Source: a phage
Sequence record: PX418213.1
Strand: one strand, 5' to 3'
Length of the DNA: 64,000 bases
Part shown: piece after piece, positions 203 to 19,764 of the stretch
How positions within the stretch are numbered: position 1 is the first letter of the stretch
Layout of the letters: each line of letters begins with the position of its first letter
The notes under the pieces: generated by a model
Databases searched by the model: none
What the model was told of the DNA's origin: nothing
What the model saw: the letters and a program-made list of their open reading frames with translations, nothing else
Translations under genes and position numbers: made by a program

Positions 203-278
203 TGGTACACCCACTAGGACTTGAACCTAGAACCCTCCGCTTAAGAGGCGGTAGCTCTAACCATTGAGCTATGGATGT
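203..278 (-). tRNA. tRNA-Lys (anticodon CTT)
   Basis: Reverse-complemented T-arm on + strand (ctaggacttgaacctag); 7-bp acceptor stem acatcca/tgggtgt with one G-U; D-stem gctc/gagc; anticodon loop CTCTTAA; CCA encoded. Confidence 0.7.
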
Positions 279-455
279 ATTAAATTACTTTTTCCAGTTC
301 ATCAGCTATGGCTTTGATTTTTTCAAAGTTTACATCACTTATAATGATACCTTCCAGTGACAGAGATATTCTAGCATTTTTCATAGCAGATTCTTTTATC
401 TGCTCTATCTCTTCTGGAGTAAACTCCCTACGTTCCATAGCTAACCTACCTTATT

Positions 456-532
456 TGGCGCGACCGATGGGATTCGAACCCACATTCCCTCCCGTGACAG
501 GGGAGTACCATTACCAAGCCAGCCCCGGTCGC
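456..532 (-). tRNA. tRNA-Asp (anticodon GTC)
   Basis: T-loop motif ggattcgaacc on + strand; perfect 7-bp acceptor stem gcgaccg/cggtcgc; anticodon stem ctccc/gggag with loop CTGTCAC; CCA encoded. Confidence 0.75.
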
Positions 533-541
533 ATAATTCAT

Positions 542-727
542 TTACTCAGCTTTGAGTTTTTCAATAGCTGCATTAAGTTCCTTAAGAAACTCTTTTCGTA
601 CATTAAGACGATTAAGACTTACTAGTATATCATGTTTAAGTTCTTCGATGTATTTCTTCTCAACTTCAATATTGTTGAGAGTGCTATCACGATGAACCTC
701 TAGCTGCGCAATTACATTCTTGGACAT
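542..727 (-). CDS. hypothetical small protein (61 aa)
   Basis: ORF between tRNA genes; GAGGAAA Shine-Dalgarno-like motif upstream of the ATG on the minus strand. Confidence 0.4.
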   Translation of the reverse strand: MSKNVIAQLEVHRDSTLNNIEVEKKYIEELKHDILVSLNRLNVRKEFLKELNAAIEKLKAE

Positions 728-829
728 GCTTGTTTCCTCAGTTATTAATGAAAATGGTATCTGTGGCTGAATTCGATGTCAGCAATGATAGCTGGTTGGC
801 TACCGGTTTACTTAACTCTACACAGAATT

Positions 830-912
830 TGGCGGGCCGTGTAGGATTCGAACCTACGTTGTCTTTCGACATGGATTAACAGTCCACCGCCAAACCGCTT
901 GGCTAACGACCC
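830..912 (-). tRNA. tRNA with Asn-type anticodon arm (GTT) and a 13-nt extra arm
   Basis: T-arm gtagg-ttcgaat-cctac; acceptor gggtcgt/acggccc with one G-U; anticodon arm gtgga-CTGTTAA-tccat resembles enterobacterial tRNA-Asn; extra arm gtc-gaaa-gac gives 83 nt. Isotype uncertain. Confidence 0.5.
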
Positions 913-1064
913 TAAATTTATATTGCTGACTAGGATTTTCACCTAGACGGAGTTAGCACCGTAGCGTGTAGCGGCATACCTCTCCAAACCGTGCCTCATC
1001 TTTCAATTACGGAGACAGTGTTCCTACGCGTGCCTGAATTGATTTAACAATTCTTTCAGCAAAT

Positions 1065-1140
1065 TGGACGACCGCATGAGATTTGAACTCACATAAAAAG
1101 GATTTGCAATCCTTCGCCTAAGCCATTCAGCCAACGGTCG
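1065..1140 (-). tRNA. tRNA-Cys (anticodon GCA)
   Basis: T-loop revcomp gagatttgaactc on + strand; acceptor cgaccgt/gcggtcg with one G-U; anticodon arm aagga-TTGCAAA-tcctt; CCA encoded. Confidence 0.7.
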
Positions 1141-1188
1141 ATTTATCTTGTTCTGTCATGTTGCTTCTCCAGTTCAATTTATGTAATT

Positions 1189-1217
1189 ATTATACAGAAC
1201 TTTTGGAAACTAAGCAA
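1189..1217 (-). promoter_or_regulatory. sigma70-like promoter (minus strand): -35 TTGCTT, 17-bp spacer, -10 TATAAT
   Basis: On + strand: attata at about 1189-1194 and aagcaa at about 1212-1217; A/T-rich upstream; drives tRNA-Cys. Confidence 0.5.
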
Positions 1218-1497
1218 CTACATTTTTTAAGAATTTGATGCCTTTCTTTTTCTTCTTATATTTCCACGTTAATGGATTCTGTCGATTATGAACGCTTGAG
1301 ATCTTCGTCTCGTCAAAGTTCTTCAATATCATGTAATCACAAGATAATTGTTCTAGTGGAATGTGATCACCGTCAAAAGCGTATACATAGGGCTGTTGAC
1401 TAGCACGATAATGATAGACTTTGTTAATTCTACGTTTCAGCGACTTATCCGCGCAGTAAATAAAGAAGTTTTCAGGATGCATCAGCAGCTCCTTCAA
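1210..1497 (-). CDS. hypothetical protein (95 aa)
   Basis: ORF track; co-oriented with the early block; no recognisable motif. Confidence 0.45.
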   Translation of the reverse strand: MKELLMHPENFFIYCADKSLKRRINKVYHYRASQQPYVYAFDGDHIPLEQLSCDYMILKNFDETKISSVHNRQNPLTWKYKKKKKGIKFLKNVVA

Positions 1498-1499
1498 TT

Positions 1500-1574
1500 T
1501 GGTGCACCCTGTTCGTATCGAACGAACCTCTCAAGCTCTTCAGGCAAGCGCTAATCCATCTCAGCTAAAGGTGC
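1500..1574 (-). tRNA. tRNA-Phe-like (anticodon GAA), non-canonical anticodon stem
   Basis: Acceptor gcacctt/agggtgc; T-arm gttcg-ttcgata-cgaac; D-stem gctg/tagc; anticodon loop CTGAAGA but the stem carries two U-U mismatches. Could be a degenerate tRNA. Confidence 0.45.
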
Positions 1575-1580
1575 AAATTT

Positions 1581-1657
1581 TGGCAAACCTACTAGGACTC
1601 GAACCTAGACCGTACGGTTTTGGAGACCGACATGCTGTCCAGTAACACTCTAGGAAT
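1581..1657 (-). tRNA. tRNA-Trp-like (anticodon CCA)
   Basis: Anticodon arm tcggt-CTCCAAA-accgt and T-arm ctagg-ttcgagt-cctag closely resemble E. coli tRNA-Trp; acceptor stem pairs only 5 of 7 (two U-U), so the 5' boundary is uncertain. Confidence 0.5.
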
Positions 1658-1665
1658 GCAGGAAT

Positions 1666-1742
1666 TGGCGTCCTGTGCGGGGGTCGAACCCGCAAATCCT
1701 ACCTTGAAAGGGTAGTGACTTTACCAGTTTGTCTAACAGGAC
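1666..1742 (-). tRNA. tRNA-Glu (anticodon TTC)
   Basis: Perfect acceptor gtcctgt/acaggac; T-arm gcggg-ttcgacc-cccgc; anticodon arm ctacc-CTTTCAA-ggtag; CCA encoded. Confidence 0.7.
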
Positions 1743-1748
1743 TTAAAT

Positions 1749-1836
1749 TGGTGGGGAAAGATGGAGTCGAACCACCCGAGTCGCAATGACAACTGATTTA
1801 CAGTCAGCTCTGCTACCACTTACAGAATATTTCCCC
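1749..1836 (-). tRNA. tRNA-Tyr (anticodon GTA), class II with long variable arm
   Basis: Perfect acceptor ggggaaa/tttcccc; anticodon arm gctga-CTGTAAA-tcagt; long extra arm; T-arm ggtgg-ttcgact-ccatc; 88 nt with CCA. Confidence 0.7.
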
Positions 1837-1902
1837 ATATTTAGAAGTATTCAAAAAATTCTAATTTAAACACTTTTAAATATGTTTCCAAATTAGGTAA
1901 CT

Positions 1903-1931
1903 ATTATACCAAGTTTTAAGGCACTGAGCAA
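1903..1931 (-). promoter_or_regulatory. sigma70-like promoter (minus strand): -35 TTGCTC, 17 bp, -10 TATAAT
   Basis: Same architecture; immediately upstream of the tRNA-Tyr/Glu/Trp/Phe run. Confidence 0.5.
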
Positions 1932-1967
1932 GTCAAATTTTAAAGAACTTGCTCAGTGCTGTATTGG

Positions 1968-2243
1968 TTAGTCGAACTTAGGAGTGACAGTTAAGGAGAA
2001 TGGAAGTTCGAAAACTTCTTCACCCTCATTACTAACAGTAATTACACGACCTTTAAGTTCAGACATTGAAATATCAATATCAGCTTTTGCATCCGGAGCC
2101 ATGCCAGCTTCAACACATTTAGCTTTAATTTCCGGCAGAAGTTCTACATCATAGAAATAAAGCCATTCAATCTCACCTTCCCAGCCTTCCCAGGATTTAC
2201 AGATTGCACTTTCAATACCAGCTGCTATAACACGATTTTGCAT
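1968..2243 (-). CDS. hypothetical protein (91 aa)
   Basis: ORF track; promoter-like motif just upstream on the minus strand (about 2274-2304). Confidence 0.5.
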   Translation of the reverse strand: MQNRVIAAGIESAICKSWEGWEGEIEWLYFYDVELLPEIKAKCVEAGMAPDAKADIDISMSELKGRVITVSNEGEEVFELPFSLTVTPKFD

Positions 2244-2333
2244 TCATTAACTCCTTCATCAATTTATATAACTATTATATCAGAAATTTAAAGCAAAAGG
2301 CAAGTACATTTTTAAAAATTCTGTTTGGAGGAG

Positions 2334-2540
2334 CTAAACTCCAGATTCTTCAGCCAAGTCTAGGCTAATAAGAGATATAGCCATAATTGCCGCTCCATGT
2401 TCTTTTTCTCCAGTCTCTTTAGCTAGAGTTATAATGTCAAGAAATTGCTTATGAAAATCTGCAACCTCTTGAGTTATACCTGCCTCAGCAATCATGCCTT
2501 TAAGCATAAAACGTTGTGCAGTAATTTCAGGATTAGCCAT
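2334..2540 (-). CDS. hypothetical protein (68 aa)
   Basis: ORF track; co-oriented with the early block. Confidence 0.4.
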   Translation of the reverse strand: MANPEITAQRFMLKGMIAEAGITQEVADFHKQFLDIITLAKETGEKEHGAAIMAISLISLDLAEESGV

Positions 2541-2715
2541 GTTGTTTCTCCAGTTTCATCTTTAATAGTCTACAAATAAAATCAATGTCTTCATCCGTGC
2601 CTAGATCTCTGTCTTCAAGAGTTGCCTTGAAGTTTTTAGTCAATTCCATGAGGATAACTTCCCTAGAACGACGTGTTGGCGGAGGTGGATGTCTATACAT
2701 CTTATTTCCTTAATT

Positions 2716-2792
2716 TGGTAGGGGTGGTGGGATTCGAACCCACAAAACCTGAATTTTAAGTCCAGTACCTATGCCAATTCGATTACACCCCC
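2716..2792 (-). tRNA. tRNA with anticodon TAA (Leu-type reading) but short variable arm
   Basis: Acceptor gggggtg/cacccct; T-arm gtggg-ttcgaat-cccac; anticodon arm ctgga-CTTAAAA-ttcag; variable region only about 5 nt. Isotype uncertain. Confidence 0.5.
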
Positions 2793-2893
2793 ATGTAATC
2801 AGTTTATTAGTTGATACATATTATAGCCTAGTGAAAATCCTACTACTAGTCCCACAAACCAACCAATATAATAATCTTTTAGTTTCACAGGTA

Positions 2894-3079
2894 TTATCCT
2901 CTTTCAATATCTAGAGAAATACCACAGTTAGGATTAATACCTGTACCCTTGCAATTTGGGCAAATCCATATATTGCAAAAAGTATCTCCTGCTTCTGCAT
3001 CAGAACTTTCACCAATTCCCCTACACTCAGGGCAGGCGCATTCTTCTAGCTCTTGCTTGAGTTCTTGAAACTTGGACAT
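2894..3079 (-). CDS. small zinc-finger protein with two CxxCxGxG motifs (DnaJ-type)
   Basis: Translation contains CPECRGIG and CPNCKGTG. Confidence 0.45.
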   Translation of the reverse strand: MSKFQELKQELEECACPECRGIGESSDAEAGDTFCNIWICPNCKGTGINPNCGISLDIERG

Positions 3080-3088
3080 ATAGTCTCC

Positions 3089-3277
3089 TTAGTTAATTAC
3101 TTTTGAGGCTTCTAAAGCATTAACGTAGTAAACATCTTCTACATTATACATATAGTCTACTACTTTGTCCATAGCATGGAGTTCGGATGTAGCCTTTACT
3201 AGTCTGTACCCTTGTTTAAACTCGTCCGAACGTTCTCTATCTTGTGCAAATTTAACAGAAACTATGAATAATTCCAT
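3089..3277 (-). CDS. hypothetical protein (62 aa)
   Basis: ORF track only. Confidence 0.35.
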   Translation of the reverse strand: MELFIVSVKFAQDRERSDEFKQGYRLVKATSELHAMDKVVDYMYNVEDVYYVNALEASKVIN

Positions 3278-3296
3278 TAATTGTCCTTATTTAATT

Positions 3297-3374
3297 TGGT
3301 GGCTCCCCGAGGATTCGAACCTACGTACCTTCCGGTTATGAGCCGGGTGCTCATACCATATGAGCTTGAGAACC
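3297..3374 (-). tRNA. tRNA-Met/Ile-like (anticodon CAT)
   Basis: D-arm gctc-atatggtat-gagc; anticodon arm ccgg-CTCATAA-ccgg resembling Met tRNAs; acceptor ggttctc/gggagcc with two G-U; T-stem has only 3 clean pairs. Confidence 0.5.
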
Positions 3375-3380
3375 AAAATC

Positions 3381-3469
3381 TGGCGGAAGAAGTGGGAATC
3401 GAACCCACAAGGCTATATTTCAAACCGACAGATTAGCAATCTGCTGCAATACCGTTATGCTATTCTTCC
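3381..3469 (-). tRNA. tRNA-Ser (anticodon GCT), class II
   Basis: Perfect acceptor ggaagaa/ttcttcc; anticodon arm gcaga-TTGCTAA-tctgt; long extra arm; T-arm gtggg-ttcgatt-cccac; 89 nt with CCA. Confidence 0.7.
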
Positions 3470-7000: not shown

Positions 7001-7075
7001 TGGCCGAGGTGACAGGATTCGAACCTGCATAAAGGAATTTAGAAGACTCCTGCCTCTCCCTTAGACTACACCCCG
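7001..7075 (-). tRNA. tRNA-Arg (anticodon TCT)
   Basis: Acceptor cggggtg/cacctcg with one G-U; T-loop ggattcgaacc motif on +; anticodon arm ggagt-CTTCTAA-attcc; CCA encoded. Confidence 0.7.
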
Positions 7076-7584: not shown

Positions 7585-8101
7585 AGATATATTTCCTATT
7601 CTAAGTATTTTTAAGAATTCTCATAAAAACTCTTAAAAATACAGACGATACCGGGAGAGTCATAAGTCTCACTCATTAAGTATTTCAAGACAAAATACGG
7701 TAACGTCTATTATTTTCCAGTTTAAGTCAGGGTGACTTAGTGGTTATGTCCTGCGGTATATTGAGGACTCGGTTAGGCTTGGGGTCATGACTTCCCACCT
7801 TTTGCTGCTACTCAACAGGAGTTATCGCGAATTACCTGTGCTATTGTGCACCATTAGTGACATCTCTCATGTCAGCATTTCCCACTTTGTGGATAGCTTG
7901 AAAAACTACTCCGATATGGAGAAAGAACTTCACTATCCTAGAATACCTTCTAAAGTTCTTCTTTAGCCTGGACATAGTTAAATCGTAATAAAACTATTCA
8001 GCAGACTGGTTGGTTAGTCTGGAACCAACTACCGCGTGGTTTAGGCAGTGCGCAACTAACCTCGGAAGCTTTTACGTTAAAAGCACCAGTTATCCAGTTC
8101 T

Positions 8102-8173
8102 TACCGACCGTAGGATTCGAACCTACATCTTCCACCAGTTACGACTTGATAATACCAATTATACTAGGACGGC
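8102..8173 (-). tRNA. tRNA-like element (degenerate; no clean anticodon arm, no CCA)
   Basis: T-arm gtagg-ttcgaat-cctac identical to that of the 830-912 tRNA; acceptor pairs 6 of 7; no convincing anticodon stem-loop found by hand. Confidence 0.3.
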
Positions 8174-8396
8174 AGTGTTACTACATAAGTGATTTCCACA
8201 CCCCACTATTTATAAATTAGAGAAGAGTTTAGGGGAGAGGTTTCAGACGCCTCATTTTACACGTTCTAGCCACTAACCGGGATTGCCGCCCCCTGTGTAC
8301 TAGTTTTACAACTAACCCACCGACTCTATTCAATGCGCTCCGCTTGGGATTCTGCACTCAGCGTAATCGGCTCGCTGTTCCCTAATTTATGAATAT

Positions 8397-8433: not shown

Positions 8434-8877
8434 TTAATTAAATTCTCCAGCAATCTGAGCAGCAGTACCACCATCATAACGCCCAGGAAATTCTTCCTTA
8501 ATCGCTTTCATCAGCATACCCTTTGTAATTCCAGGGTTTAGCTTAACTAATTCTGCAAAGTATTTACGAATCTCAGTATCAGATAACTGAGGAGGCAGAT
8601 ACTCCTGCAACCATTTATTTAGAATGTACTCATACTGAGCAGACTGCAAGCTATAACTATCAAGATCTTGACCATGAAGTTTAGCTTTCATCTGGTTAAT
8701 GCTTTTTAGTTGAGCTTTGAGATAAGACACAAATTGTTCAGAAGTGATGAAATCTTTATCAATACGCTGAAGATCCCCAATTATGGTCTGATAGCTTTTA
8801 GCGACTTCTTTATCAGAACCATTAAACTTAGAATCCTGCAAAGCTCTACGCAAAACATCTAAAATATTCTCTTCCAT
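8434..8877 (-). CDS. hypothetical protein, possible GatB/YqeY-like C-terminal domain
   Basis: C-terminal GMLMKAIKEEFPGRYDGGTAAQIAGEF resembles the YqeY/GatB motif; start overlaps the stop of the upstream small ORF (TAATG). Confidence 0.45.
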   Translation of the reverse strand: MEENILDVLRRALQDSKFNGSDKEVAKSYQTIIGDLQRIDKDFITSEQFVSYLKAQLKSINQMKAKLHGQDLDSYSLQSAQYEYILNKWLQEYLPPQLSDTEIRKYFAELVKLNPGITKGMLMKAIKEEFPGRYDGGTAAQIAGEFN

Positions 8878-17433: not shown

Positions 17434-19764
17434 TTAAATAGTACAACCACCGGATGCACAACCGGCTGCTTCTTCTCCAGCACCTCCACCATTTGCGGTA
17501 TTGAAGTTAGCATAATACCAAGTTTTCCACCCATACTTAACAGCAGTCATGAAATCACGAACTACTACTGGGCCAGGAATGATTTCATTCTCAAACTTGG
17601 TGTAGTCATAGTACATATTCGTACTGATAGACTGACTGAAGAATTTCTGCATAGTTGCTACCCATTTGATCCACTCGATACGATCTACATCATAAGCCAG
17701 TTTATAGCTCATTAATGTTTCCCAATCGGTTGCACCTGGAGCAATTGCAATTACTTTATTTACTGCACTACCTTTAATAGATACAATCTTACGAGGCGGT
17801 TCGATAGAGTTAGTAACTCCTAGCAGAACAGAAGAACTTTCTCCCGGCATCTGAGCAGTCAGAACAGAGTTACGCATACCATATTTCAGAATATCTGCAC
17901 GTAGAGACTCCCAATCCATTTCTAGACCTACGGATACCAGTTCATCAACAGTTTTCTTGTACGTATCGATTACCAGAATTCCTTTAGATGGTTTAGTACG
18001 ATCAAACCACTCACATGCACCCTGTTCCTTAGCCAGGCGTACAGAGGCTTTATGCAGGAAGTAAGACAGTTTTTCAGCCTCACGGTGAATCCAGTTACGG
18101 GCTTCAATACCTTCGTAAGCCAGACCTTCTGCTGCCATTGCACCTGCTGCATTCATCAGGCCAATACCAACATTACGACGTTTCTTAGCCGTATATTCCA
18201 TAGTTGGGAACGGATAATCCTGAATTTCAATAATTGTATCAACGAATTTCAGGAGGATGTAGCAAGTTTTTTCCCACTCAGCCAGAGACTCCATGCGCCC
18301 AAGTACAACACCACCTAAGTTACACAGAGATACTTCACCAATATCCTCCGGCTTCATTTGATCAAGCTGCTCTTTTGTCTTGTACAGCTCTGTAATGTGA
18401 TGGAACGGGCGCGTAGGCTGAGTAATTTCAACACAAAGGTTTGTCATACGGATCGGATCAAGGAAGTTACCGTGACGATTAGATTCCCCGATGTGATGAG
18501 CATACATACGTCCTGTTTCCATTCGGATACGTAGCCAAGTATCTAGGATTTCTTTTGCAGAGACTTTAGGAGCTGCTGGAACTGTTTTTCCTTCGTGGTC
18601 GATCTTTGTAAGAGATGCCACACGTTTCTCCGCTGCCACGTAGATTTCTTCAAAATTAGCCTCGTCATCACTATAAAACGCTTCATGAACTTCTGGAGCA
18701 TAGAAGTATGACATTAGCGTAATATCTTCGTTTTTAAGATAACGTTTTAACAAAAGATTGTTAAAGCTCAGAGAATAATCCATCTTATCGATTTTATTCT
18801 CATCTGTAGCACGTTGTTGCTTAACCTGCATCAATTGAATGATTTCAGGATCGAAGTATGGATAAGACACTGTAGCAGAACCACCACGAGTTTGCTGAGT
18901 ATTGGCCTTTACTGAGCGGTCAATGTGTCGATAATATGGCAGTTTTCCGGAATGCGGGAATGCCCCATTTCGCACCGGATCAGCAATTGATCGGCTTTCA
19001 AGATGATACCCGATTCCCGCTCTGGCTGCGACCATTTTGAAGACGATGTGCTCGGCGGTGTCGATTGAATCCAACGTGTCAGTGGAATCCACGAGGCAGC
19101 AACTAGCAAATCCACGGTCACTAGAGCGCAGACCAACCAGTGGCGGCGTAGGAACGTTGATTTTGTGGAGTGACATTGCGTTGTAGAGATCGATTGCATC
19201 TAGAATTGTCCAGTTAGGTTGAGATAACATAGCCATTGCCATACCCATGTAGGCAAACTGCGGGGTTTCATAAATTTCACCAGTGGCTATATTACGACGG
19301 GAATACTTATCAAAGAACTGCTTCAGCCCACCACTAGTAAAAAGACGGTCACGATCATGGTCGATAACCTGATTCAGAGCTTCAAATTGCTCATCGGTAA
19401 TCCATGCACTCATGTCTTCCCATGCACCTACGCTAACCATGTGGTCATGGAAGAAGCGTAGAGAAGGTGGTTCGAAGGAATCATAAAGGCGTTTACGCAT
19501 TTGCGCAAGACGTAATTCCTTTGCTGGCACATCATATGCTGGATTATCTTTAATAAGACTTTCAGCAGCTTTAATTAATGCATCCATCAGAGTGTCGGAA
19601 TCTACAACCCCTTTAGGCAGAGTTTTTTGAGCAGCCATAGTAATGGCTGACCAACTTACATCAACTGTTTTGCAACCATACTCTGCCCAACCATTGATTT
19701 TTTCAGGAGCAAAGTCTTCTACAGTACCGTCACGTTTAATTACTTTTTCAATGCGATGGCTCAT
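17434..19764 (-). CDS. nrdA: ribonucleotide reductase large subunit (class Ia)
   Basis: N-terminal ATP-cone (RIEKVIKRDGTVEDF), C-terminal Cys pair; start moved to ATG at 19764 (MSHRIEK) preceded by AAGGAAAG; the track start at 19869 has no SD. Confidence 0.9.
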   Translation of the reverse strand: MSHRIEKVIKRDGTVEDFAPEKINGWAEYGCKTVDVSWSAITMAAQKTLPKGVVDSDTLMDALIKAAESLIKDNPAYDVPAKELRLAQMRKRLYDSFEPPSLRFFHDHMVSVGAWEDMSAWITDEQFEALNQVIDHDRDRLFTSGGLKQFFDKYSRRNIATGEIYETPQFAYMGMAMAMLSQPNWTILDAIDLYNAMSLHKINVPTPPLVGLRSSDRGFASCCLVDSTDTLDSIDTAEHIVFKMVAARAGIGYHLESRSIADPVRNGAFPHSGKLPYYRHIDRSVKANTQQTRGGSATVSYPYFDPEIIQLMQVKQQRATDENKIDKMDYSLSFNNLLLKRYLKNEDITLMSYFYAPEVHEAFYSDDEANFEEIYVAAEKRVASLTKIDHEGKTVPAAPKVSAKEILDTWLRIRMETGRMYAHHIGESNRHGNFLDPIRMTNLCVEITQPTRPFHHITELYKTKEQLDQMKPEDIGEVSLCNLGGVVLGRMESLAEWEKTCYILLKFVDTIIEIQDYPFPTMEYTAKKRRNVGIGLMNAAGAMAAEGLAYEGIEARNWIHREAEKLSYFLHKASVRLAKEQGACEWFDRTKPSKGILVIDTYKKTVDELVSVGLEMDWESLRADILKYGMRNSVLTAQMPGESSSVLLGVTNSIEPPRKIVSIKGSAVNKVIAIAPGATDWETLMSYKLAYDVDRIEWIKWVATMQKFFSQSISTNMYYDYTKFENEIIPGPVVVRDFMTAVKYGWKTWYYANFNTANGGGAGEEAAGCASGGCTI

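Follow-up and report, generated by a model that had tools for sequence, protein, structure and literature searches.

The phage DNA analyzed here, sequence record PX418213.1, is a stretch of 64,000 nucleotides (nt), referred to below as the window in its whole length, and the features discussed lie within its first ~9 kb. Five of the tRNA genes found there have unusual shapes: a tRNA-Asn(GUU) with an extra arm, a tRNA-Leu(UAA) without a long variable arm, a tRNA-Phe and a tRNA-Trp with U.U mismatches in their stems, and a CAU-anticodon tRNA with an imperfect T stem. These are very probably functional, phage-specific tRNA genes of the T5 family, belonging to the allele set of Salmonella phage 5 and phage SE11. 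As judged from homologous sequences, the Asn arm, the loss of the Leu arm, the Phe and Trp U.U pairs, and the bulge of the CAU tRNA appear to be conserved traits of the lineage rather than damage. All five genes had been known and annotated before.

The tRNA array and its five unusual genes

The first 8 kb of the window is T5-like (Demerecviridae) and is matched by 1,087 phage records, the closest being Salmonella phage SE11 (97.8% identity, 93% query coverage). The array and the five genes, identified with ARAGORN and the Rfam tRNA model RF00005, are listed below.

203..3469 (minus strand): T5-type tRNA array segment with 11 tRNA genes, each with an encoded CCA (ARAGORN, Rfam RF00005, and identity to SE11)
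830..912 (minus strand): tRNA-Asn(GUU), 83 nt, G73, class-II-like long variable arm, anticodon at 878-880 (ARAGORN and Rfam)
858..870 (minus strand): variable arm of the tRNA-Asn, 13 nt, GUCGAAAGACAAC, read as GUC-GAAA-GAC followed by unpaired AAC (ARAGORN drawing)
1500..1574 (minus strand): tRNA-Phe(GAA), 75 nt, with an internal loop of U28.U42 (1547/1533) and U29.U41 (1546/1534) in the anticodon stem (non-pairs in Rfam)
1581..1657 (minus strand): tRNA-Trp(CCA), 77 nt, A1-U72, G73, with tandem U2.U71 (1656/1586) and U3.U70 (1655/1587), plus U27.U43
2716..2792 (minus strand): tRNA-Leu(UAA), 77 nt, class I, anticodon at 2756-2758, 5-nt variable loop GUUUU at 2744-2748, A73 (ARAGORN and Rfam)
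3297..3374 (minus strand): CAU elongator tRNA, 78 nt, T arm at 3308-3325 with bulged U at 3323; the curated records of T5 and phage 5 label it tRNA-Ile2

The boundaries and non-canonical features of these five tRNAs had first been proposed by hand folding, in a first-pass annotation of the DNA. ARAGORN reproduced them in every case and Rfam concurred; canonical folds with different boundaries, the sign of a hand-folding error, did not occur with ARAGORN. The CCA end is encoded in 5/5. Scores with RF00005 were 59.0 bits for Asn, 57.4 for Leu, 42.4 for Phe, 40.3 for the CAU tRNA, and 36.3 for Trp and, since all of them exceed the curated gathering score of 29 bits, the matches are far beyond chance.

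The identity of the genes could be read from a curated record. Over the 141 bases around the tRNA-Asn, the window shows 100% identity to AJ604531 ("Bacteriophage 5 tRNA gene region," from Salmonella phage 5), a record hand-curated by the Ksenzenko laboratory that lists tRNAN (83 nt), tRNAF, tRNAW, tRNAL2 (UUA, 77 nt), and tRNAI2 (CAU). Its notes state that versions of Asn, Trp, and Leu2 carrying a CUA anticodon are amber suppressors, with Leu2 being "effective." The window shares the gene order ...Asp, RNA3, Asn, Cys, Phe, Trp, Glu, Tyr, Leu2, Ile2, Ser3... with the tRNA region of phage 5, BF23, and T5 (AJ604531, NC_005859). The comparison with T5-type tRNA sets that the first-pass annotation had suggested holds for phage 5, which has the same genes, but not for T5 proper, which has other Asn and Trp alleles and no Leu(UAA). 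The T5 tRNA-Asn is a 78-nt class I molecule with an altered anticodon arm, annotated as not convertible to a suppressor, while that of the window has 83 nt; the T5 Trp allele is different; and where the window has tRNA-Leu(UAA), T5 carries the homing endonuclease gene hegA. The proper comparison set is phage 5, SE11, and fp01 rather than T5 itself.

ARAGORN called tRNA-Asn(gtt) at c[830,912], bearing out the Asn-type anticodon arm combined with a 13-nt extra arm and GAAA loop that had been seen by eye. The anticodon loop is CUGUUAA, and the arm consists of a 3-base-pair (bp) stem, GUC/GAC, capped by GAAA. With a variable region of >10 nt (here 13 nt) forming a stem-loop, the molecule resembles class II tRNAs, but GUU and G73 place it outside the class II isoacceptors Leu, Ser, and Tyr; it is a class-II-like fold outside the canonical class II set. 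In bacteria, the established identity set of Asn consists of the GUU anticodon (G34, U35, U36) and G73 (PMC9976931), and it is complete in this tRNA. Given this set and the lack of A73, faithful decoding of Asn codons would be expected from the long-arm molecule. Alleles of the tRNA-Asn region at least 99% identical to that of the window occur in 107 phage records.

The tRNA-Leu(UAA) departs from expectation in the opposite direction. ARAGORN returned tRNA-Leu(taa) with a 5-nt loop at 2716-2792, where the first-pass annotation had noted a TAA anticodon and a short variable arm, and the long arm of class II is lacking. Its alleles recur at ≥99% identity in 293 phage records. The E. coli LeuRS depends on A73, the A15-U48 Levitt pair, G18G19, and A20a, and also on A14, with the long arm being dispensable (PMC9976931). 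The elements A73, A14, A15-U48, and G18G19 are all present in the window tRNA-Leu(UAA), as is A20a, which was read in the window tRNA alone.

The U-U mismatches reported by hand folding were also recovered. At 1500-1574, ARAGORN called tRNA-Phe(gaa), and Rfam marked both of its U.U positions as non-pairs. Positions 28.42 and 29.41 are U.U and U.U in T5, U.U and A.C in Proteus phage 1, and U.C and U.U in the T4-like Serratia phage CHI14; they are thus unpaired across three phage families, and the closing pairs around them are kept in these homologs. In more distant homologs (Eos and an uncultured contig), the anticodon stem is fully paired. The E. coli PheRS has been studied with the tRNA-Phe of T5 as substrate (Kholod et al. 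1997, as cited in PMC9976931). As a separate observation, the tRNA-Phe of IrmaTschudi, Proteus phage 1, and CHI14 has the T loop AUCGUUA, with a swap of positions 54 and 58 (A54...U58).

At 1581-1657, ARAGORN gave tRNA-Trp(cca) with the tandem U.U in the acceptor stem. In this stem, the 5′ and 3′ strands are AUUCCUA and UAGGUUU in the window, AUUCCCC and GGGGUUU in Klebsiella phage SEL21, and AUUUCCC and GGGAUUU in phage Eos. Among the three, compensatory changes affect pairs 4-69, 6-67, and 7-66 as well as the entire T stem, while U2.U71 and U3.U70 remain constant. The window alleles are ≥99% identical in 239 phage records. The same tRNA carries G8 rather than U8 and U14 rather than A14, which is also conserved in SEL21 and Eos.

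The CAU tRNA was missed by ARAGORN in its default mode; with the option -ps90, it was called as a 78-nt tRNA-Met(cat) whose T stem contains two non-pairs. The best reading of the T arm is C49-G65, G50-C64, a bulged U, A51-U63, G52-C62, and G53-C61. Pair 49-65 is G-C in IrmaTschudi and SEL21, and the bulge, a C in SEL21, is retained throughout. Pair 30-40 of the anticodon stem changes from G-C in the window to A-U in T5, and alleles ≥99% identical to that of the window are found in 145 phage records. The T stem is therefore best described as conserved, with 5 bp and a single bulged pyrimidine. From the first-pass annotation, a CAU tRNA with an imperfect T stem at 3297-3374 stands, but "weak" does not fit a conserved bulged stem, and "Met-type" gives way to the curators' tRNA-Ile2. 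The curated records of T5 and phage 5 (NC_005859, AJ604531) contain three different CAU tRNAs, namely tRNAM, tRNAfM, and tRNAI2. Because the window tRNA has G1-C72, it is not an initiator. It is presumably the lysidine-modified Ile2 rather than a Met tRNA. It shares the CAU anticodon, A37, and A73 with the E. coli tRNA-Ile2, but has no meaningful sequence similarity to ileX or ileY and differs in its bulged T stem.

Neither the tRNA-Asn nor the CAU tRNA has a close relative in E. coli. By BLAST against 5,426 complete E. coli genomes, the long-arm Asn had no close copy, only a weak 71% match to tRNA-Lys, and the CAU tRNA only weak matches to tRNA-Arg (73-75%) and a partial match to tRNA-Met, which argues that neither is a recent capture from the host. 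The array is made of genuine, catalogued T5-family tRNAs and not of artifacts or wrecks, and one of them is better read as Ile2 than as Met.

Long-arm tRNA-Asn and class I tRNA-Leu as phage forms

Armed tRNA-Asn genes of 81-87 nt were found in Novosibvirus, Epseptimavirus, Straboviridae (Serratia phage CHI14 and Klebsiella phage Roth16), Phapecoctavirus, and a phiKZ-like Pseudomonas phage. A scan of 2.9 million viral contigs for an Asn anticodon arm separated from a T arm by a long spacer gave at least 120 matches, with 91 distinct sequences. Among the matches listed, 90 long-arm sequences were analyzed: 78 can form a hairpin of ≥3 bp, and 52 have a stem of ≥3 bp closed by a GNRA loop, mostly GAAA (shuffled sequences: mean 0.5, maximum 3). 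The 90 sequences have 41 distinct arm stems. In an alignment of 28 homologs, RNAalifold predicted the arm hairpin independently, with 0-1 broken pairs and with the three core pairs exchanging between GC, AU, UA, and CG. Arm positions were paired in 88% of the counts versus 50% in shuffles, and the covariation score of the arm was 0.939 versus 0.178 in shuffles (reached by 0/500), with slid controls at ≤0.18. Over the long-arm family, both-sided changes were seen at 18/23 pairs. The extra arm is a real, selected hairpin.

When the spacer was left free, 19 of the 120 viral tRNA-Asn among the matches listed (16%) were long-armed. The long-spacer pattern occurred at 30 places in 185,579 prokaryotic genomes (one per bacterial or archaeal species), in a scan that covered this pattern alone. 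About 17 of these 30 are true long-arm Asn, most of them in tRNA arrays or on contigs of metagenome-assembled genomes. On viral contigs, the median number of other tRNAs within 2 kb was seven for long-arm Asn and two for class I Asn. The long-arm tRNA-Asn is a phage-wide form that belongs to phage tRNA arrays. Chromosomes of Micromonospora and Verrucosispora hold arrays of 23-36 tRNA genes per 8 kb, which include 89-90-nt long-arm tRNA-Asn and several tRNA-Leu of class I length; these look like integrated mobile or phage-derived tRNA arrays.

In their identity positions, the long-arm sequences (G73 in 85/93, U1 in 62/93) are like class I Asn and unlike tRNA-Tyr (A73, G1). Their arms have a stem of 3-4 bp with 0-1 unpaired nt at its 5′ base and 3-4 at its 3′ base. 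At the same loci, three nt are unpaired on the 3′ side of the tRNA-Tyr arm, one in tRNA-Ser (stem of ~5 bp), and 1-2 in class II tRNA-Leu. In geometry, the arm thus resembles that of the bacterial class II tRNA-Tyr, which has a 3-4-bp stem and ~3 unpaired 3′ nucleotides, and whose anticodon, GUA, is one base away from GUU. Many long-arm Asn also share a CCCGAG...GGG D arm, which we take to be Tyr-like. They differ from tRNA-Tyr, however, in G73 and often in U1, and GNRA loops cap 62% of the long-arm Asn but 4% of phage tRNA-Tyr. By global alignment, the nearest non-Asn isotype was Ser in 33 cases, Tyr in 33, and Leu in 16, with identities of ~0.7-0.79, a ranking probably driven by length. A long variable arm on a tRNA with the anticodon of a class I amino acid is also known from the nematode nev-tRNAs (PMC3333845); these, however, are said to decode an alternative code for leucine, whereas the phage tRNA keeps the Asn identity set.

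Other isoacceptors of the same loci can be armed as well. The tRNA-Thr(UGU) of phage 5 (locus positions 1936-2022) has 87 nt and the extra arm GGA-GUAA-UCC, again with a GNRA loop, while it has 75 nt in T5, IrmaTschudi, and DaisyDussoix. In loci anchored on tRNA-Asn, 8/40 distinct phage tRNA-Thr(UGU) genes are long-armed, along with a few Cys, Trp, and Phe tRNAs.

Class I tRNA-Leu is a phage form too, about as common as the long-arm Asn. Distinct tRNA-Leu shorter than 81 nt made up 53/119 in the Asn-anchored loci, where tRNA-Ser was long in 79/79, and 21/50 in loci selected on class I Asn. A scan with the Leu(UAA) anticodon loop and free spacing found class I molecules in 20 of 117 viral matches (17%). 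Twenty-four phage class I tRNA-Leu of 77 nt align without gaps and form a cloverleaf in which the D stem has 3 bp, the D loop 11 nt, and the variable loop 5 nt, and they show compensatory change at 20/20 pairs; A14, A15, G18, U33, A35, U48, and A73 are invariant in them, and G19 is present in ≥90%. Arm-less tRNA-Leu of animal mitochondria and engineered in E. coli are leucylated through A73, A14, and contacts with the D and T loops (PMC9976931). The phage class I Leu keeps those elements, but is a natural gene used in the bacterial cytoplasm. The same review, from 2023 (PMC9976931), assigns the long arm to Leu, Ser, and Tyr and confines the loss of the Leu arm to animal mitochondria, a rule to which phages are an exception.

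Both shapes are common in phages and almost absent from cells, with the cellular count having been made for the long-arm Asn alone. Rules on tRNA shape derived from cells fail in phages, where about one sixth of the matched viral tRNA-Asn is armed and a similar share of tRNA-Leu(UAA) is arm-less. No description of these variable arms in phage tRNA-Asn or tRNA-Leu was found in the searchable literature, which is weak evidence because most of the older subscription and Russian-language papers on T5 fall outside it. The generality of the two shapes, as recurrent phage-specific architectures, may therefore be under-described, and no priority is claimed.

Proposed function of the unusual tRNAs and possible reasons for their shapes

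If the five genes are functional, their minus-strand transcripts would be processed to tRNAs ending in CCA. Charging by the host synthetases is proposed because the identity elements read by E. coli AsnRS, LeuRS, and TrpRS are retained. The charged tRNAs would then decode AAY, UUR, UUY, and UGG and, after lysidine modification of C34, AUA, and these codons include some heavily used by the phage. The sequences show structure, conservation, covariation, identity elements, and distribution; the charging specificity, the modification, and a selective reason for the odd shapes are what we infer. In the 37 large open reading frames (ORFs) of the window, UUA and CUA account for 25.5% and 22.7% of the Leu codons and AUA for 18% of the Ile codons; UUA, CUA, and AUA are rare in E. 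coli. This demand fits a codon-supply role for the tRNA-Leu(UAA), and the share of AUA favors Ile2 over a third tRNA-Met. Moreover, amber suppression by the CUA derivatives shows that the tRNA body is processed and compatible with the ribosome.

Some points weigh against this interpretation. Determinants of the lysidine synthetase TilS, which we take from E. coli to be C4-G69 and C5-G68, are present by one of two pairs in the CAU tRNA, whose acceptor stem has U4-A69 and C5-G68. Its assignment to Ile2 is based on the annotation of the curators and on codon demand, and automated annotations say tRNA-Met. Suppression is no proof of Asn or Trp charging, because the anticodon is the main determinant for AsnRS and TrpRS (PMC9976931). 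Finally, T5 deletion mutants without many of the tRNA genes are viable, so that none of the five genes is essential.

As for the shapes, one tentative possibility, compatible with functional genes, is that they let the tRNAs escape host immunity directed at tRNAs while still being charged by the host. The AriB nuclease of PARIS cleaves tRNA-Lys(UUU), Thr(UGU), Asn(GUU), and Thr(CGU) of E. coli at U36AAUC|N41, between positions 40 and 41, and contacts the D loop (PMC12409363). The T5 tRNA-Lys, Thr, and Asn jointly neutralize PARIS; the study used the class I Asn of T5 and never mentioned variable arms (PMC12409363). The neutralizing T5 tRNAs (PMC11464382, PMC12409363) include the same isoacceptor, Asn(GUU), and come from the same phage family as the window Asn, but they carry substitutions at or near 40|41. 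The window Asn has none of the T5 type: its U36AAUCC41 is the same as in tRNA-Asn of E. coli (PMC12409363), and it has the extra arm instead.

This pattern is what suggested a structural escape. The armed Asn of the window keeps UAAUC|C intact, while in the class I Asn of T5, DaisyDussoix, and Klebsiella phages U39 is replaced by G; likewise, the 87-nt long-arm Thr of phage 5 keeps UAAUCA, while the 75-nt Thr of T5, IrmaTschudi, and DaisyDussoix reads UAAGCA. The association between arm and UAAUC held in seven Demerecviridae records, and the confinement of long-arm Asn to phage arrays (19/120 viral matches listed versus 30 in 185,579 prokaryotic genomes) is in line with it. For Leu, the rationale would be that a tRNA which has lost its arm evades toxins that pick out class II tRNAs through this feature. 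According to a preprint, AbiEii, an Abi toxin, appears like MenT3 (both nucleotidyltransferases) to prefer long-armed class II tRNAs. Among the class II identities, Leu is the only one that withstands loss of the arm (PMC9976931), in agreement with the short Leu (53/119) and invariably long Ser (79/79) of the Asn-anchored loci.

However, in a sample not selected on the motif, no relation between arm and UAAUC was seen (long-armed: two with and two without; short: 13 with and eight without), and for this reason escape is kept as a rival hypothesis. In addition, the prime AriB target, tRNA-Lys(UUU), was long-armed in 0/75 cases in the Asn-anchored loci, with one candidate, an ARAGORN call of ≥80 nt, in another sample. 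Bas34 (Escherichia phage SelmaRatti, MZ501103) is uninformative as a test. Its own tRNA-Asn was insufficient for protection in the PARIS study (PMC12409363), but the annotated gene (17599-17683) is a broken chimera, a long-arm Asn up to the T stem joined to the 3′ end of a tRNA-fMet, with an unpairable acceptor stem (G3.G70, U4.C69, C5.C68) and no call by ARAGORN; such a chimera would explain the failure to protect. Both this gene, a wreck annotated as tRNA-Asn, and the CAU tRNA that default ARAGORN missed are a lesson for annotation.

In its general form, the hypothesis is that tRNA shapes evolved in phages and not used by cells (Tyr-like, GNRA-armed Asn and sometimes Thr, Cys, or Trp, and arm-less Leu) keep the host identity while evading AriB, in the case of Asn and Thr, and arm-dependent nucleotidyltransferase toxins, in that of Leu, by structure and not by sequence; the tRNA-Asn and tRNA-Leu(UAA) of the window would be instances. 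We regard this as somewhat doubtful. If such tRNAs were escape devices, this would partly explain why phages carry tRNAs, could help to predict which defense systems a phage overcomes, and would offer compact scaffolds for orthogonal or nuclease-resistant tRNAs.

It is unlikely that the odd alleles are largely by-products of mosaic turnover by homing endonucleases, through co-conversion or resistance to HNH cleavage, with no advantage of their own. At the same locus, long-arm Asn in the window, phage 5, and IrmaTschudi alternates with class I Asn in T5 and DaisyDussoix, where the gene is overlapped by an ORF annotated as a homing endonuclease; T5 hegA stands in the place of the tRNA-Leu(UAA), and HNH endonuclease genes are interspersed in the array. 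Yet the same architectures recur with wholly different sequences in Straboviridae, Phapecoctavirus, phiKZ-like phages, and many uncultured phages, and turnover would leave unexplained both the strong compensatory maintenance of the arm and the strict retention of synthetase identity.

The first-pass annotation had offered, as an alternative to real phage-specific variants, that the five genes are decaying copies. Stem mismatches, the CAU tRNA overlooked by default ARAGORN, and the tolerance of the tRNA region for deletions in laboratory T5 mutants could be cited for non-functional copies in a dispensable region, and wrecks do exist in relatives, such as the Asn/fMet chimera of Bas34 and a T5 tRNA-Gln flagged as a pseudogene. 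But the five tRNAs show neither the uncompensated stem damage nor the poor conservation of pseudogenes: the mismatches are the conserved part and the pairs flanking them covary, 5/5 exceed the Rfam threshold, identical or near-identical copies number in the hundreds (≥99% identical alleles in 107-293 records), and suppressor activity is recorded in AJ604531. Decay is therefore very improbable, and wide conservation, compensatory change, and the amber-suppressor notes speak for the variants.

Least credible of all is that the long-arm GUU tRNA is mischarged through its arm, for example with Ser or Tyr, recoding Asn codons like nev-tRNAs or allo-tRNAs. The long arm itself and its Tyr-like geometry could favor this, and the arm, G73, G1-C72, G2-C71, and C11-G24 presumably overlap with SerRS elements; SerRS, however, recognizes a long arm of ~5 bp or more with ~1 unpaired 3′ nucleotide, as in the tRNA-Ser of these loci (median 5 bp, one unpaired), against 3-4 bp and 3-4 unpaired in the Asn arm, so that serine mischarging seems unlikely from its geometry. 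Also against mischarging stand G73 in place of the A73 of Tyr and Leu and a complete known Asn identity set in GUU + G73 (PMC9976931), and a proteome-wide recoding of Asn would be unlikely to persist in many unrelated phages.

Other elements of the tRNA region

Several neighbors of the five genes also deserve mention. The tRNA-Lys(CUU) at 203-278 (minus strand) occupies the place of the phage 5 ORF trn 2.10; the tRNA-Lys(CUU) of IrmaTschudi is nearly identical to it, an example of mosaic gain and loss in the array. The tRNA-Tyr (1749-1835, minus strand) scored only 33 Rfam bits and has A.C and U.U mismatches in its acceptor stem, and the tRNA-Asp (456-532, minus strand) has 64% G+C and a weak D stem. 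A further tRNA-Arg, at 7001-7075, is located outside the 203..3469 segment.

Directly 3′ of the tRNA-Asn is RNA3 (750-829, minus strand), which the curated T5 and phage 5 records label a tRNA-like stable RNA. Its fold (-17.9 kcal/mol, z = -2.66) consists of two hairpins and a closing stem of 6 bp. Phage DT571/2 has a BLAST match only to 800-854 of the window, which covers the 5′ end of RNA3 and the first bases of the tRNA-Asn, and this match is annotated as RNA3.

A tRNA-like element was also found at 8101-8174 (minus strand), with 35.5 Rfam bits, no CCA, and an 8-bp acceptor-like stem. Its homologs lie inside or beside "RNAX" in T5 and IrmaTschudi, and the "anticodon" varies, being cgt in the window, act in T5, and tca in IrmaTschudi. 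Finally, the ORF of 147 amino acids at 8434-8877 (minus strand) is a homolog of T5.081, annotated as "tRNA amidotransferase." Against the Pfam family YqeY (a tRNA-binding domain like the GatB tail), it scored 25.4 bits, just under the cutoff of 27, and it is possibly a small tRNA-binding protein encoded beside the tRNA region.

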